12,698 nt of DNA from a virus. The stretch lies in UHGV virus genome UHGV-0271890, one strand, 5' to 3'. The notes beneath the pieces were generated by a model. That model worked only from the letters and a program-made list of their open reading frames with translations. It was not told the DNA's origin and did not search any database. Shown in pieces: positions 412 through 8,310 of this stretch (positions are counted from its first letter, which is position 1; each line of letters begins with the position of its first letter). A program made the position numbers and the translations under genes.

Positions 412-487
412 TGGTAGAAGTGGAGGGATTCGAACCCATCGCCTGTCAGATTAAAAGTCTGCCGCATCACCATTCTGCTACACTTCC
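412..487 (-). tRNA. tRNA-Lys (anticodon UUU), non-canonical T-stem
   Basis: Acceptor GGAAGTG/CACTTCT (G1:U72), D-loop AATGGTGA, anticodon loop CTTTTAA on stem GCAGA/TCTGA, T-loop TTCGAAT flanked by only 3 GC pairs (ATGGG/CCCTC has two mismatches); CCA encoded. Confidence 0.65.
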
Positions 488-491
488 ATTA

Positions 492-635
492 AATTATCTT
501 TGTAGATAAGCTACCCAGACTTGCTTAAGGTCTGTAGCGATGTGCCTTTTTGGGTTTAAATCTAGAATTTACCCTTTCACCCTTTGTGGTCGCATACTCA
601 CAGGTAAGCTTAATAACTTATCTACAAAGATAATT
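492..635. repeat. 19-bp perfect inverted repeat enclosing 106 bp
   Basis: AATTATCTTTGTAGATAAG at 492-510 is the exact reverse complement of CTTATCTACAAAGATAATT at 617-635; each arm is also a local hairpin (TTATCT-NNNN-AGATAA). Confidence 0.8.
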
Positions 636-636
636 A

Positions 637-770
637 CCAGACCGTTGTTTATCATCTTAAGTGCTACCATTACACCAACTCGACATCTGCCGAGTGAAGG
701 AATCGAACCTTCGCCTTTTCTTTACCGAGAAATAGATTGTTTAAGTTTTGCTGTAAACGGTCTTCTGTAA
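637..770 (-). ncRNA. Candidate Y-RNA-like / permuted tRNA-mimic RNA
   Basis: Minus-strand order is T-arm GAAGG-TTCGATT-CCTTC (plus 696-712), then a closed 7-bp acceptor-like hairpin ACTCGGC-AGAT-GTCGAGT (plus 678-695), then a D-arm-like GTGT-AATGGTA-GCAC (plus 661-675). All sit inside an 8-bp long-range stem (plus 639-646 with 756-763). No canonical cloverleaf is possible. Confidence 0.45.
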
Positions 771-780
771 ATTTGTTGAG

Positions 781-856
781 CCAGACCAAGTTTTAAATTT
801 TTCAAAATTAAATTGGTTTGAAATTTTAAGTATCTTGCTGTATTTGGTCTTCTGCT
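781..856 (-). ncRNA. Stem-bounded structured element, family member
   Basis: Conserved CCAGACC...GGTCTTCTG flanks with 7-bp closing stem AGACCAA/TTGGTCT (783-789 with 844-850); conserved sense-strand 5' motif CAGAAGACC-NNNT-ACAGCAA; internal AT-rich hairpin. Confidence 0.4.
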
Positions 857-915
857 CCTTTAAAGGATACTCGTAAGAACCCTTTAAGGGAGGGGCTAAA
901 TAGCCCTCTCAAAAT

Positions 916-993
916 TGGCGGTTACGAAGGGATTTGAACCCTCATCATCTCCCGTGACAGGGGAGTATTTTAACCAAATTAAACTACATAACC
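916..993 (-). tRNA. tRNA-Asp (anticodon GUC)
   Basis: Acceptor GGTTATG/CGTAACC, D-stem GTTT/AAAT, anticodon stem CTCCC/GGGAG with loop CTGTCAC, T-arm GAGGG-TTCAAAT-CCCTT, discriminator G, CCA encoded. Confidence 0.88.
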
Positions 994-998
994 TTTAT

Positions 999-1086
999 TG
1001 GTGTGCCGTGTAGGAGTCGAACCTACCGAGTCTCAATGACAAGGGATTTACAGTCCCCACCGCTACCATCTACGGGATAACGACAC
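999..1086 (-). tRNA. tRNA-Tyr (anticodon GUA), class II with long variable arm
   Basis: Acceptor GTGTCGT/ACGGCAC (one U:G), anticodon stem GGGGA/TCCCT with loop CTGTAAA, ~15-nt variable arm with GTC/GAC stem, T-arm GTAGG-TTCGACT-CCTAC, CCA encoded; 5' end and D-arm register uncertain. Confidence 0.75.
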
Positions 1087-1095
1087 ATTTAAATT

Positions 1096-1172
1096 TGGCG
1101 GTTAGTCAGGGATTCGAACCCTGTGCCATTCGCTTAACAGGCGACCGCACATACCTTATGTGCTTCCTAACC
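1096..1172 (-). tRNA. tRNA-Asn (anticodon GUU)
   Basis: D-arm GCAC-ATAAGGTAT-GTGC perfect, anticodon loop CTGTTAA, T-arm CAGGG-TTCGAAT-CCCTG, acceptor GGTTAGG/ACTAACC with 7:66 G:A mismatch, discriminator G, CCA encoded. Confidence 0.78.
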
Positions 1173-1183
1173 TTAATACATTG

Positions 1184-1250
1184 CCAGACCGTGTTTTTTT
1201 TTTTTCTTTTATCCGCAAAAAGTATTTTGTTGCTGAATACGGTCTTCTGC
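1184..1250 (-). ncRNA. Stem-bounded structured element, family member
   Basis: Closing stem AGACCGT/ACGGTCT (1186-1192 with 1239-1245) covaries with the other copies; contains a 13-nt homopolymer T-run (plus) and an internal hairpin. Confidence 0.4.
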
Positions 1251-1255
1251 AAATT

Positions 1256-1332
1256 TGGAGGCGGGTGCAGGAGTCGAACCTGCCGATACCATGCTAATGA
1301 GACATGTGAGACGCCCTTTCTCTATACCCGCA
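1256..1332 (-). tRNA. tRNA with CAU anticodon (second Met-type; possibly Ile2/lysidine or initiator)
   Basis: T-arm GCAGG-TTCGACT-CCTGC, acceptor 3' strand ACCCGCC pairing TGCGGGT (1:72 mismatch), anticodon stem CATGT/GCATG with loop CTCATTA (U37 unusual), CCA encoded; 5' boundary uncertain. Confidence 0.6.
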
Positions 1333-1343
1333 ATTCTTAATGA

Positions 1344-1417
1344 CCAGACCAAATCTCTTCTTTGTCCGATTTACCTTCAGATGAATAAGATTAAGTTTGC
1401 TGTAATTGGTCTTCTGT
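1344..1417 (-). ncRNA. Stem-bounded structured element, family member
   Basis: Closing stem AGACCAA/TTGGTCT (1346-1352 with 1406-1412); same conserved flanks; abuts the CCA end of tRNA-Glu. Confidence 0.4.
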
Positions 1418-1423
1418 CAAAAC

Positions 1424-1501
1424 TGGCGTTCCAGAAGGGATTTGAACCCTCAGATATCCACTTTGAAAGAGTGGTGACTTTACCATTTTGTCTACTGGAA
1501 C
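1424..1501 (-). tRNA. tRNA-Glu (anticodon UUC)
   Basis: Acceptor GTTCCAG/CTGGAAC perfect, anticodon stem CCACT/AGTGG perfect with loop CTTTCAA, T-arm GAGGG-TTCAAAT-CCCTT, discriminator G, CCA encoded. Confidence 0.88.
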
Positions 1502-1508
1502 ATTAATT

Positions 1509-1585
1509 TGGTCTCTGTTGGAGGACTTGAACCTCCGGCCTTACCGCCCCAAACGGAACGCTCTACCAAGCTGAGCTAAACAGAG
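1509..1585 (-). tRNA. tRNA-Pro (anticodon UGG)
   Basis: Acceptor CTCTGTT/AACAGAG perfect (C1:G72), D-arm GCTC-AGCTTGGTA-GAGC, anticodon loop TTTGGGG, T-arm GGAGG-TTCAAGT-CCTCC, CCA encoded. Confidence 0.85.
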
Positions 1586-1611
1586 ATAAACTTTTCAAAC
1601 TCTATGTAACC

Positions 1612-1641
1612 ACTTTAACATTATTTTTTAGTGATTGTCAA
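1612..1641 (-). promoter_or_regulatory. Candidate promoter for the tRNA array
   Basis: On the minus strand: TTGACA (plus 1636-1641), 18-nt spacer, TAAAGT (plus 1612-1617), about 25 nt upstream of the tRNA-Pro 5' end. Confidence 0.45.
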
Positions 1642-1710
1642 GAACTTTTTTAAAATATTTTTCAGTATCTTAGAAAAGCTCTCGTTTCGTTTCTATGTAG
1701 AACATATTAA

Positions 1711-1745
1711 AGGGTATCAAACACATTGTCAATACCCTTTTTGAA
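1711..1745. terminator. Hairpin terminator just downstream of the vWA gene stop
   Basis: AAGGGTAT...ATACCCTT 8-bp stem, followed on the plus strand by TTTTTGAAACTTTTT and preceded by an A-run on the minus strand; direction ambiguous, possibly bidirectional. Confidence 0.45.
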
Positions 1746-1750
1746 ACTTT

Positions 1751-3166
1751 TTACCAGATGTAACGGTCAATCATTACTGCTTTGAGCATTACGCTGATTG
1801 GGTCAAACTTCTCACCACCAAGCAGAGCTTTTAAAGTGGCTGGAGAGAAACCAGATACCATTGCTACACCGTTATCCTTAACAGATACTTCGCAAGTACC
1901 ACTACGGTTTGCTAAGTACCAGAATACCAGTTGTGGCATTTCGTATCCAGCTTTTTTGTACTTACTACGAATTGCTTCAAAGTTTGTACGACCGTTAGCT
2001 CCATCAACCTGATTGAACTCCATATCGGAGAAGATGATAAGCTTACTTGGCATATCTTTCTGAGTCAAGTTGTTTCTTTTACCTGTCTCAAGAATACGGT
2101 CAAAAGCAGCTTGTAAGTTAGTTGAGCCATATTCAACGTGTCGCATCACCTGACGATGACGGTTTCGTAAATCACCACTCAGTTCGATGAAGTGAGGGTT
2201 TGTTGAATAAACCATCAACTCATTCTTAAAGCAACCTGTATTACGTTCTGCTACATACAATGCAAGTGAAACACCAATATCAAGAGCAGTAATTGAACCA
2301 AAATTCACCCAAGACATTGAGCTTGAAACATCAGACATACACAAGATGTTTTCACCCTCTGCCATCCAGTTTGGTAGTGCTTTCCACTGCTCATTAGCAA
2401 CATCTGCATTACCATGCTTAACAGATTTAATTACATCGTATGGGTAAACAGCACCAGCATTAATCTTAGTCTCACCCTTTGATAAGGACTCGATGTAAGC
2501 TTTGTAGCGTTCTCCATCTTTACGGTTAAACAGTTTTTGGTAACGTGCAGCAGCAAGTGAAGGAATCTTACTGTAGTCAATCTTACCAAACTCATTAGCA
2601 GAGATTTTTTGCTCAACTGTATCAGATAGTGCAGACAACAGTGTGCGGTACTCTTTCTCACTCAAGTTGGCAAACTTGCAGAAACGTTTTACAAACTGCT
2701 TATGACGTGGTTTGACTCGTGGTAACCACTTAGCTGCCAAACCTGCTGTTGCAGGGTCTAGTAATGCTGCTTCTAAATGTTTGAAGGCATCTGTCTCGAA
2801 ACGAGTACCTACGAAGATTTTGAAGTCATCAAAACGACCAAGTTCTGCAATCTTATCCATAATGCGAAGAACCTGTGTAGGCTCTAAAACTTTATCTTCA
2901 ATTGCTTGAAGCAAAACAGTTCTGAAGGCTTTACGCTCACCCATACCTTCTCGTACATCTCGCATGTGAAGCAAAATACGAACTGCAACATCAACATCCT
3001 CACGCAAAGCTTTGTAGAACAGGTCTGGTAAGATTTCTACATTGCTACGGCTCGAACCAGCAGATTTGTAAAAGTCTACAAGAGCAGACATTGATGAAGT
3101 ATGGTTTACAGCACCATTTTCAGTTCGACCTGCATGAAGGTGCGCATGTTTAAATAATTCGCTCAT
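1751..3166 (-). CDS. vWA (MIDAS) domain protein, 471 aa; possibly Ro60/TROVE-like or DUF2828-like
   Basis: Long ORF with RBS; MIDAS motif D-x-S-x-S (ILCMSDVSSSMS, ~nt 2300-2340) followed by predicted alpha/beta segments; N-terminal ~270 aa likely helical. Family assignment is from memory. Confidence 0.8.
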   Translation of the reverse strand: MSELFKHAHLHAGRTENGAVNHTSSMSALVDFYKSAGSSRSNVEILPDLFYKALREDVDVAVRILLHMRDVREGMGERKAFRTVLLQAIEDKVLEPTQVLRIMDKIAELGRFDDFKIFVGTRFETDAFKHLEAALLDPATAGLAAKWLPRVKPRHKQFVKRFCKFANLSEKEYRTLLSALSDTVEQKISANEFGKIDYSKIPSLAAARYQKLFNRKDGERYKAYIESLSKGETKINAGAVYPYDVIKSVKHGNADVANEQWKALPNWMAEGENILCMSDVSSSMSWVNFGSITALDIGVSLALYVAERNTGCFKNELMVYSTNPHFIELSGDLRNRHRQVMRHVEYGSTNLQAAFDRILETGKRNNLTQKDMPSKLIIFSDMEFNQVDGANGRTNFEAIRSKYKKAGYEMPQLVFWYLANRSGTCEVSVKDNGVAMVSGFSPATLKALLGGEKFDPISVMLKAVMIDRYIW

Positions 3167-3200
3167 ATTTTACTCTCTTCTCTCATTTTGTTTGTTGATG

Positions 3201-3248: not shown

Positions 3249-3620
3249 TTATTTTTTGAGAGTCGCTACAGCAGAGAACGTTGGTTTGTTATCTGTCTGA
3301 GATTGACCACCACTATCAGGGGTCTTCTTAGTGTCTGCTGCAAGTGCTTTCATCTCACCTGCTGAGTGAGTAAAGATAGTTTTACCGACCTCAATCATAC
3401 TCTTGATGGTTACGTCATCTGTGTTTAACCCGAACTCTGCAAGCTTAGCCGCGTCCCTTGTAACAATCGCCTCAAACAACTTTGCAGCAAACTCAGCAGA
3501 ATTATCAATGGTCAGTTGAGCTTTTACAAGTGAGCTTTTGTTACGAGAGCCTTTTGGTCTTCCAGATGGGTTTCCAGACTGGCCTTTTTTAAACTGGCCT
3601 TTGTTTGTTCTGTTTTTCAT
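3249..3620 (-). CDS. GNPxGRPKG-motif basic protein, 123 aa (DUF5681-like, probable nucleic-acid binding)
   Basis: ORF with RBS AAGAGG 7 nt upstream of ATG; N-terminal KKGQSGNPSGRPKGSRNK motif recalled from phage proteins; upstream of and co-oriented with the vWA gene. Confidence 0.75.
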   Translation of the reverse strand: MKNRTNKGQFKKGQSGNPSGRPKGSRNKSSLVKAQLTIDNSAEFAAKLFEAIVTRDAAKLAEFGLNTDDVTIKSMIEVGKTIFTHSAGEMKALAADTKKTPDSGGQSQTDNKPTFSAVATLKK

Positions 3621-7973: not shown

Positions 7974-8310
7974 GCTCCATGTCACAGTGTACAAAAACTT
8001 CTCAGATATCAAAGAGTCTTTAACAAATAAGCTTGACTTACAACGTAAAAGACTCTTTTTAATGTACGACATAGACAACTACAACCATCCTAAAGAGTTT
8101 AACTACAAAGATGGTACAAAGGTTGTTGAGTTTGAAGATTCTGTAACGGTATATGTAAAATATGACTTACCAGCAAAGTACATAGGGGTGTTAGAGTATT
8201 ATATATTCAAACATACTGGTATGCGTGGTGAATCTGTCAAGATATCTTCTATAGAAGTTTTTGAGAAACCTAACACACAACTTAAAAAGTATTTAATGAG
8301 GAAACTGTAA
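7966..8310 (+). CDS. Hypothetical protein, 114 aa
   Basis: ORF with GAGAG RBS; small overlap with the upstream gene. Confidence 0.7.
   Translation: MSKLHVTVYKNFSDIKESLTNKLDLQRKRLFLMYDIDNYNHPKEFNYKDGTKVVEFEDSVTVYVKYDLPAKYIGVLEYYIFKHTGMRGESVKISSIEVFEKPNTQLKKYLMRKL

Follow-up and report, generated by a model that had tools for sequence, protein, structure and literature searches.

Ro60-Y RNA particles are known from animals, from some 5% of bacteria and from a small number of phages. Among the bacterial Y RNAs, those of the YrlA type are composed of a T-arm, a closed acceptor and a D-arm in permuted order inside a terminal stem (Chen et al., 2014; PMC4201824), and the YrlA of Mycobacterium smegmatis is cut by RNase P and given CCA in vivo (PMC4201824). 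In mycobacteriophage Bxz1, whose gp220 matches the Pfam models TROVE and vWA_Ro60, two Y RNAs lie upstream of gp220: YrlA, with a terminal helix, GCCGAGAG, a variable-arm hairpin (V), a T-arm, a closed acceptor and a D-arm, and YrlB, with a terminal helix and GCCGAAGG and no tRNA-like part; in both the terminal stem is followed directly by GNCGA(A). The Thermus phage phiLo has a Ro60 (PMC12135203; 9KOP, 9L5Y) and two adjacent stem-bulge-stem RNAs, Yrl1 and Yrl2, which bind phiLo Ro60 and the host PNPase in vitro (PMC12135203). In this work a locus with comparable parts was analyzed in a stretch of 12,698 nucleotides (nt), referred to as the window, of the virus genome UHGV-0271890. On its minus strand the window carries the gene of a Ro60-like protein of 471 amino acids (aa) and four stem-loop RNA candidates, named elements A to D, the last of which contains a permuted tRNA-like module.

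Element D (635-767, minus strand) is recognized with 139 bits by R1, a covariance model built from element D orthologues. It opens with a conserved CAGA (767-764), followed by the 5' strand AGACCGUU (756-763) of a terminal, or basal, helix, which forms 8 base pairs (bp) with the 3' strand AACGGUCU (639-646), after which comes a conserved GG (638-637). The loop motif UA-CAGCAA (748-755), 3 nt past the helix, is invariant in elements A to D and is proposed as a candidate protein-binding motif. An asymmetric internal loop with a conserved UACAGCAA separates the terminal stem from the tRNA-like core. The core comprises, in this order, a variable-arm-like hairpin UUUCU-CGGUAA-AGAAA (717-732), seen in the minimum free energy (MFE) fold and in the RNAalifold consensus; a T-arm GAAGG-UUCGAUU-CCUUC (696-712), read directly, present in the MFE fold and partially matched by the tRNA model; a closed acceptor-like hairpin ACUCGGC-AGAU-GUCGAGU (678-695) of 7 bp including one G-U; and, at 661-677, the linker U677 G676, equivalent to tRNA positions 8-9, with the D-arm GUGU-AAUGGUA-GCAC (675-661), read directly and present in the MFE fold. 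The nucleotides that are invariant in tRNAs (U8, A14, G18G19, A21, G53-C61 and UUCGA) are all present, and the MFE fold of the region recovers every named helix. A search with a strict pattern (T-arm, perfect hairpin of at least 7 bp, GG-containing D-arm) gave a single match in the window and was matched in one of 300 mononucleotide shuffles. The T-arm, the 7-bp closed hairpin, the D-arm and the 8-bp terminal stem named in a preliminary description of this DNA can thus all be read directly on the minus strand; of its further statement that the terminal stem takes the place of an anticodon stem, the 8-bp stem is retained and direct stacking is not, as the internal loop intervenes. CUUAA/UUAAG was tried as an anticodon stem and rejected, being a weak helix that is not kept in relatives.

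That the order T-arm, acceptor, D-arm precludes a cloverleaf, as had also been proposed, agrees with the tRNA searches. ARAGORN made no tRNA call at the position of D in native order, the Rfam tRNA model matched only the T-arm (positions 43-63, 14.9 bits), and with neither was a canonical-order cloverleaf with a 7-nt anticodon loop obtained for D. When D was permuted at the hairpin loop, ARAGORN made a full-length tRNA call in which an "intron" interrupts the anticodon region, and the same was the case for nine of 12 permuted D-type elements, the Bxz1 YrlA control included, vs. none of the 12 in native order. Other unusual tRNA-like sequences were seen in related loci. In Aeromonas phage Aeh1 (L039 8920-9310) there are three consecutive tRNA-like genes, 2.7 kb downstream of a DUF2828 gene, whose anticodon or variable region is enlarged by insertions of ~40-60 nt; a second T-arm is found in one of them, and one is a 122-nt tRNA-Val according to its annotation. 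This trio may represent non-permuted tRNA-like RNAs. Yersinia phage P778 (L003 ~8005-8150) has a tRNA-like sequence composed of a GCGGGUG...CACCUGC acceptor, a D-arm and a T-arm, with an insertion of ~70 nt and no ARAGORN call.

The structure of D is conserved by compensatory change. Unguided RNAalifold prediction from ten Ounavirinae orthologues produced the basal, V, T, acceptor and D helices, with compensatory changes in 13 of the 27 pairs of the consensus. The terminal helix covaries both between paralogues A to D and between phages; in the V hairpin compensatory change affects three of the four consensus pairs and is seen in L037 alone, which also has one such change in the T-arm (CAUGG/CCAUG). 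Most covariation is found in the acceptor-like hairpin, for which three different stems occur within the Ounavirinae and others again in distant phages; the forms seen include ACUCGGC/GUCGAGU in Felixounavirus, ACACGU/GCGUGU in a sister group, ACCCUUC/GAAGGGU in Mooglevirus and CGCUCCC/GGGAGUG in L037. The D-arm is invariant within the Ounavirinae and covaries in the distant D-type elements, which R1 detected in L118 (69 bits), L092 (55 bits), L069 (52 bits) and Mycobacterium phage MsGreen (34 bits), and further in L054, L064, L074 and L121; the permuted tRNA-like module is present in one copy in several lineages. Of the R1 matches with E <= 1, 95 out of 96 are on the gene strand. In the R1 alignment double changes are seen in all five helices and 94.5% of the cells are paired, vs. 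58.6% in shuffled sequences and 36-46% with slid partners, it being noted that an alignment fitted to the model biases such pairing counts towards structure. The consensus and the R1 alignment together show covariation in every helix, as anticipated for homologous loci in the preliminary description, and the case which it had named as a refutation, a decayed tRNA pseudogene, finds no support, since the helices keep pairing by compensatory change.

Elements A, B and C share the outer part of D and lack its core. Element A (1342-1416, minus strand; R1 34.6 bits) is a CAGCAA stem-loop without tRNA-like module in the spacer between tRNA-Glu and tRNA-Met, element B (1182-1249, minus strand; R1 41 bits) lies between tRNA-Met and tRNA-Asn, and element C (779-854, minus strand; R1 33.7 bits) is directly upstream of D. 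Their interiors are A/U-rich and weakly structured, the tRNA-like module being confined to D. Common to the four are a helix of 7 bp, a spacer of 3 nt leading to CAGCAA, and a 3' G; all read CAGA-AGACC-NNN-U[A/U]CAGCAA ... NNN-GGUCU-GG, where the NNN covary between paralogues. CAGAAGACC has exactly four copies on the minus strand, as has GGUCUGG, the two combining into the four elements, and none of 200 shuffles reached the observed counts of 11 CAGAAGACC (with one mismatch) and 6 GGTCTGG (both strands). An exhaustive R1 scan of the window without filters returned exactly A to D, followed only by matches to the T-arms of real tRNAs. A fifth element suggested by a loose scan (3827-3664) was rejected, having no 3' G, a position upstream of the operon promoters and no unfiltered R1 match. 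As a family definition we propose a 7-bp helix starting with A/U-G-R, the 3-nt spacer, CAGCAA, the 3' G and a location beside a DUF2828 gene and on its strand, all of which A to D possess. Escherichia coli phage Bas63 holds all four elements (L124 4350-4422, 4517-4580, 4972-5045, and 5059-5190) in unannotated spacers, partly under the opposite-strand open reading frame (ORF) calls bas63_0137 and bas63_0138.

The protein gene (1751-3166, minus strand; Pfam DUF2828 + DUF7788) encodes the orthologue of Bas63 gp130 (97.9% identity) and matches PHROG 850, "RNA-binding protein." Searches of its product against PDB sequences (phmmer and a profile search) found nothing relevant and no Ro60, and there was no match to NCBIfam or to Pfam TROVE (PF05731) or vWA_Ro60 (PF25045); with the sequence searches empty, the link to Ro60 comes from comparison of folds alone. 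The AlphaFold2 (AF2) model, made with 36 homologues, has a predicted local distance difference test (pLDDT) value of 89.7 and a predicted template modelling (pTM) score of 0.89, and is helical at residues 1-265 and alpha/beta at 270-471. With Foldseek the top 12 PDB matches were all Ro60/TROVE proteins over the full length (E 5e-9 to 8e-7, TM 0.47-0.65), among them 9KOP, 2I91, 1YVP, 9NEP and 2NVO; they comprise the Ro60 of Thermus phage phiLo, Xenopus and human Ro60 and Deinococcus Rsr, and the next best matches were isolated vWA domains. The hhalign comparison with the TROVE protein Bxz1 gp220 was weak (E 1.4e-4) and fell at the junction of ring and vWA domain and on the MIDAS motif (metal ion-dependent adhesion site), where DVSSSM aligns to DVSGSM of gp220. 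Both the HEAT-repeat ring and the vWA domain with its MIDAS motif are thus found by the AF2 model, Foldseek and hhalign, and according to the model the protein is a divergent Ro60 with a TROVE ring and a vWA domain; the vWA protein noticed upstream on the same strand in the preliminary description is present, and extends to a full Ro60 fold by AF2 and Foldseek. DUF2828 homologues occur in at least 710 phage records, including phages of Vibrio, Aeromonas, Campylobacter, Listeria, Staphylococcus, Bacillus and Mycobacterium. AcrIIIA1, a tRNA-fragment binder of a staphylococcal phage, was also considered and set aside as unrelated, being rare and without a confident fold. A literature search on DUF2828 returned plant and tardigrade mentions only.

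The association of the stem-loops with DUF2828 genes was addressed in other phages. By a strict definition of the scaffold, 115 of 164 diverse loci from phages and metagenome-assembled genomes (MAGs) have it on the gene strand beside the DUF2828 gene, with 202 same-strand vs. 30 opposite-strand matches in total. The 84 viral loci, searched within 1.5 kb of the gene, gave 103 same-strand vs. 19 opposite-strand matches, with at least one match in 58 loci, and an independent set of 80 GTDB genome or MAG loci, used as a replicate, gave 99 vs. 11, with at least one match in 57 loci. The distance from helix to motif is 3 nt in 122 of the 160 stem-plus-CAGCA matches on the gene strand of DUF2828 loci. 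Counts of basal-helix pairs are circular for elements that the scan itself selected, and enrichment by strand and position as well as positions not subject to selection were used instead: a G follows directly on the 3' side of the helix in 80% of gene-strand vs. 18% of opposite-strand matches, G occupies helix position 2 in 69% vs. 18%, and the sixth base of the motif is A (CAGCAA and not CAGCAT) in 87% vs. 48%. Element position follows the end or the start of the DUF2828 gene, often within 20-60 nt, and at least 23 element-bearing loci have no tRNA gene within ~3 kb, which indicates that the elements track the protein gene and not tRNA arrays. Individual cases extend over a wide range of phages. 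Yersinia phage P778 and L037 have the scaffold with other helix sequences (AGGACUG/CAGUCC etc.); in Mycobacterium phage MsGreen, at 33% protein identity, the gene is immediately followed by three copies, of which the middle copy contains the permuted tRNA-like module in perfect form; Listeria phage A511 has three copies right before its DUF2828 gene and Campylobacter phage F352 two; and metagenomic phages likewise carry the scaffold beside DUF2828 genes.

Comparison with the described systems shows both likeness and difference. The order of parts and the terminal stem agree with the YrlA architecture (Chen et al., 2014; PMC4201824), to which the preliminary description had already likened this locus. 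As in YrlA, D has the order V, T-arm, closed acceptor and D-arm with the tRNA-invariant nucleotides; its 5' and 3' ends are held in a covarying terminal helix of 8 bp (763-756/646-639); and a Ro60 orthologue, recognized as such by its fold and not by the Pfam TROVE model, is encoded on the same strand within ~4 kb, the stop codon of the ORF being 984 nt upstream of D. YrlA/YrlB and A to D are also alike in standing beside a Ro60-type gene on its strand with several paralogues per locus, in having a short conserved purine-rich motif after the terminal helix, and in that one paralogue carries the permuted tRNA-like domain (V, T, acceptor, D) and another does not; the acceptor stem of M. smegmatis YrlA is, like that of D, of 7 bp, and from this stem it would be plausible that D is likewise cut by RNase P and given CCA. 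Unlike YrlA, elements A to D have the motif (U)A-CAGCAA at a fixed 3-nt spacing in place of GNCGAA(N)G, a conserved 3' flanking G, and a partner protein of DUF2828/DUF7788 and not of TROVE/vWA_Ro60 type, and they occur as four copies within a tRNA operon. Structurally the window protein is matched best by phiLo Ro60 (PMC12135203; 9KOP, 9L5Y), at ~16% structure-based sequence identity; the phiLo RNAs differ from A to D in having a CGAA motif, and "tRNA-like" has 0 occurrences in PMC12135203. Metazoan Y RNAs resemble A to D in forming paralogues with a conserved terminal helix as the protein site and variable apical loops, and are unlike D in lacking a tRNA-like domain and in having a bulged GGUCCGA helix motif. 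By all structural and contextual criteria tested D is like YrlA, the motif and the Rfam model discussed below excepted; as these two fail, D on its sequence resembles YrlA and is not a demonstrable member of that family.

We consider it probable that D, together with A, B and C, represents Y-RNA-like partners of the divergent phage Ro60. From the features described above we infer a course of events covering transcription and processing, binding, and a role of the tRNA-like module. Elements A to D would be transcribed within the phage tRNA precursor and released by tRNA-processing nucleases, i.e., RNase P together with the 3' maturation of the tRNAs on either side. The terminal helix of 7-8 bp, the UA-CAGCAA loop and the 3' G would constitute the docking site for the Ro60-like ring protein; in a parallel way, Y RNAs bind Ro60 by a terminal helix and a conserved motif next to it. 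At the apex of D, the module made of T-arm, closed 7-bp acceptor, D-arm and V hairpin amounts to a tRNA body in circular permutation; it would take up a tRNA-like fold, and would probably do one of two things, either stabilize the RNA or tether the ribonucleoprotein (RNP) to a host factor that recognizes tRNAs. The apical parts vary from one paralogue to another, as is the case for Y RNAs.

A number of observations weigh against such a partnership. GNCGAAN0-1G is not found beside the 5' strand of the terminal helix in D, where UACAGCAA is present instead; the only GNCGAAG match in D (714-707) overlaps the T stem and is unconserved, and GGCGAAGG at this position was accordingly rejected as a canonical Ro motif, reading GGAGAAGG in close relatives. 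The Rfam YrlA model RF02553 has no match in 480-1000 at E <= 10, so that the Infernal search with a YrlA-type model, one of the checks suggested in the preliminary description, did not recover element D; at the gathering score it had no match in the window or in eight related loci, where Rfam gave only tRNA matches, and the positive control, Bxz1 YrlA, was found with 32.5 bits (E 1.8e-4). In the reverse direction R1 matched only the tRNA-like core of Bxz1 YrlA (15.7 bits). The MFE of the single sequence is unremarkable for its composition (z = -1.34), and thermodynamics alone therefore gives the structure no support. About 30% of DUF2828 loci have no element by the strict definition, and in L036 (6400-7430; 64% protein identity) elements A, B, C and E (E being a further structured RNA described below) are kept and D is absent, which by its sequence is a natural loss, or no gain, of the tRNA-like paralogue, and makes the tRNA-like module appear dispensable in some phages. 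Finally, Bas63 gp130 is reported as a Ro60-like protein that counters the Ppl defence (PhageMaP preprint, 10.1101/2024.10.10.617714): supplied from a plasmid or from T7, it is enough by itself to bring back plating on the Ppl strain (10.1101/2024.10.10.617714), and the Ppl phenotype thus has no need for phage RNAs.

This last observation, together with the fact that the permuted module passes as a tRNA, would suit a different explanation, in which the stem-loops are not parts of an RNP and act mainly as regulatory operators or as protein-independent decoys, for instance by titration of the protein for autoregulation or, in the case of D, against tRNA-targeting defence nucleases. Also in favour of it are those phages where a small version of the element overlaps or abuts the Shine-Dalgarno (SD) sequence or AUG of the DUF2828 gene. 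In the KVP40-like Vibrio phage phi-pp2 (L038 4965-5005) a CAGCAA element is located in the 5' untranslated region (UTR) of the gene, with the AUG in the 3' strand of the helix and the SD in the loop, and mini-hairpins of 32-33 nt abut the SD in L049 (2953-2986), L054 (1763-1795) and L056 (2858-2890). This layout suggests autogenous translational control by the protein, and an element placed over the SD or AUG fits a site which the protein binds. However, the four copies in the window are downstream of the gene in a tRNA operon and not in a 5' UTR, the presence of several paralogues whose apical modules vary is the pattern of Y RNAs, and a decoy function leaves the simple A/U-rich paralogues unexplained; we regard operators or decoys as unlikely.

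Smaller still, to the point of being improbable, is the chance that A to D are cis-acting elements of the tRNA precursor, serving processing, punctuation or stability through host RNases and unrelated to the Ro60-like protein. All four window elements do lie in spacers between tRNA genes and on the tRNA strand, and DUF2828 genes often adjoin tRNA genes; against this, the scaffold flanks DUF2828 genes in the tRNA-free loci counted above, its position follows the gene end or start there described, and the equivalent RNAs in canonical Ro60 loci are known partners of the protein. A decay product is very improbable, i.e., that D is a functionless remnant of a tandem tRNA-copy junction or of a tRNA pseudogene. 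The hairpin loop of Moogle, L037 and L118 still reads as discriminator-CCA-spacer, like a tRNA-tRNA junction, and points to a putative origin of the D-type module from such a junction or from a permuted tRNA, and GenBank labels of tRNA-Thr or tRNA-OTHER occur at D; a remnant would nonetheless not be expected to keep all its helices paired through compensatory changes across lineages, the module always stands within the conserved CAGCAA scaffold and has emerged or persisted in phages unrelated to one another, those of Actinobacteria and of Proteobacteria as well as metagenomic lineages, and matching outer tRNA halves were not found in the window. Just as improbable, finally, is that D is a true permuted tRNA gene, with a transcript that is made circular and cut again into a working tRNA as in Cyanidioschyzon merolae: the ARAGORN calls for nine of 12 permuted elements, the 7-bp acceptor stem and the CCA encoded in some loops speak for it, but the permuted elements require an "intron" of 28-64 nt which is the conserved protein-type scaffold, the assigned "anticodon" differs from element to element, the joined ends give no normal anticodon arm with a conserved 7-nt loop, the scaffold also exists without tRNA-like part in A, B and C, no bulge-helix-bulge was noticed on reading the sequences, no formal search being made, and no splicing pathway for permuted tRNAs is known from these hosts.

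As to the setting of the locus, the window is the tRNA array of a FelixO1-type myovirus (Felixounavirus). Its positions 480-3200 gave matches to 299 phage records, most of them from Felixounavirus, with identities of up to 98.4%. ARAGORN identified nine tRNA genes on the minus strand between 1585 and 253. A promoter-like site, TTGACA-18-TAAAGT with an extended -10 TG (1612-1641, minus strand), was found ahead of the array of tRNAs and Y-like elements by a consensus scan only, and from this consensus match the array is probably transcribed from 1641-1612. Element D is located inside the 428-nt gap from tRNA-Asp (993-916) to tRNA-Lys (487-412). A stretch of 201 nt around it is kept in 246 of 253 matching phage records, mostly without annotation; some GenBank records label the spot tRNA-Thr or tRNA-OTHER, and a few have an opposite-strand "hypothetical protein" over the region. 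In ASO1B (L001 1569-1697) a 129-nt tRNA-Thr-GGT from tRNAscan-SE runs across C and D, and in Bas63 (L124 5030-5304, MZ501086.1) the opposite-strand coding sequences bas63_0137 and bas63_0138 cover elements D and E. The tRNA-Thr-GGT call and both coding sequences are likely annotation artefacts, and a knock-out of "g137" would in reality disrupt element D.

Other features were noted near the elements and the gene. The whole 428-nt spacer folds much better than its shuffles (z = -5.0). Between D and tRNA-Lys there is a structured RNA of ~150 nt, named element E (486-636, minus strand), which is closed by a helix of ~20 bp (632-611 paired to 511-490) and has the hairpin CAGAC-CUUAAGCAA-GUCUG in its interior; E is kept in six relatives with compensatory changes in 23 of 42 predicted pairs, and has no Rfam match. 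Between tRNA-Asp and element C (856-915, minus strand) there are two more hairpins, GGGCU-AUUU-AGCCC and the near-palindrome CCUUAAAGGGUUCUUACGAGUAUCCUUUAAAGG. Directly before the Ro60-like gene lies a 123-aa DUF5681 ORF (3249-3620, minus strand), which has the same position in L036, L037 and Yersinia phage P778 and may be an operon partner of the Ro60-like gene.

Within the literature searched, RNA partners of DUF2828 Ro60-like proteins had only been conjectured; the authors of PhageMaP went no further than to speculate that some annotated tRNAs might be Y RNAs (10.1101/2024.10.10.617714). The present analysis exposes mis-annotation in GenBank, in the form of spurious ORFs and tRNA-Thr or tRNA-OTHER calls over these RNAs, and gives the DUF2828 family, whose member in Bas63 is a counter-defence gene validated by experiment, concrete RNA candidates that are defined by sequence and can be mutated. 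With four such candidates sharing a simple conserved motif in a genetically tractable E. coli phage, the relation of the Ro60-like protein to RNA becomes testable. On a wider scale we would put forward tentatively, and as something possible rather than probable, that DUF2828/DUF7788 proteins together with CAGCAA stem-loops make up a second lineage of Ro60-Y RNA RNPs, one that is carried by phages and has its own RNA recognition code, which would be present in phages of most bacterial phyla and in which a Ro-like ring may be tethered to host enzymes of RNA decay or tRNA handling in counter-defence.

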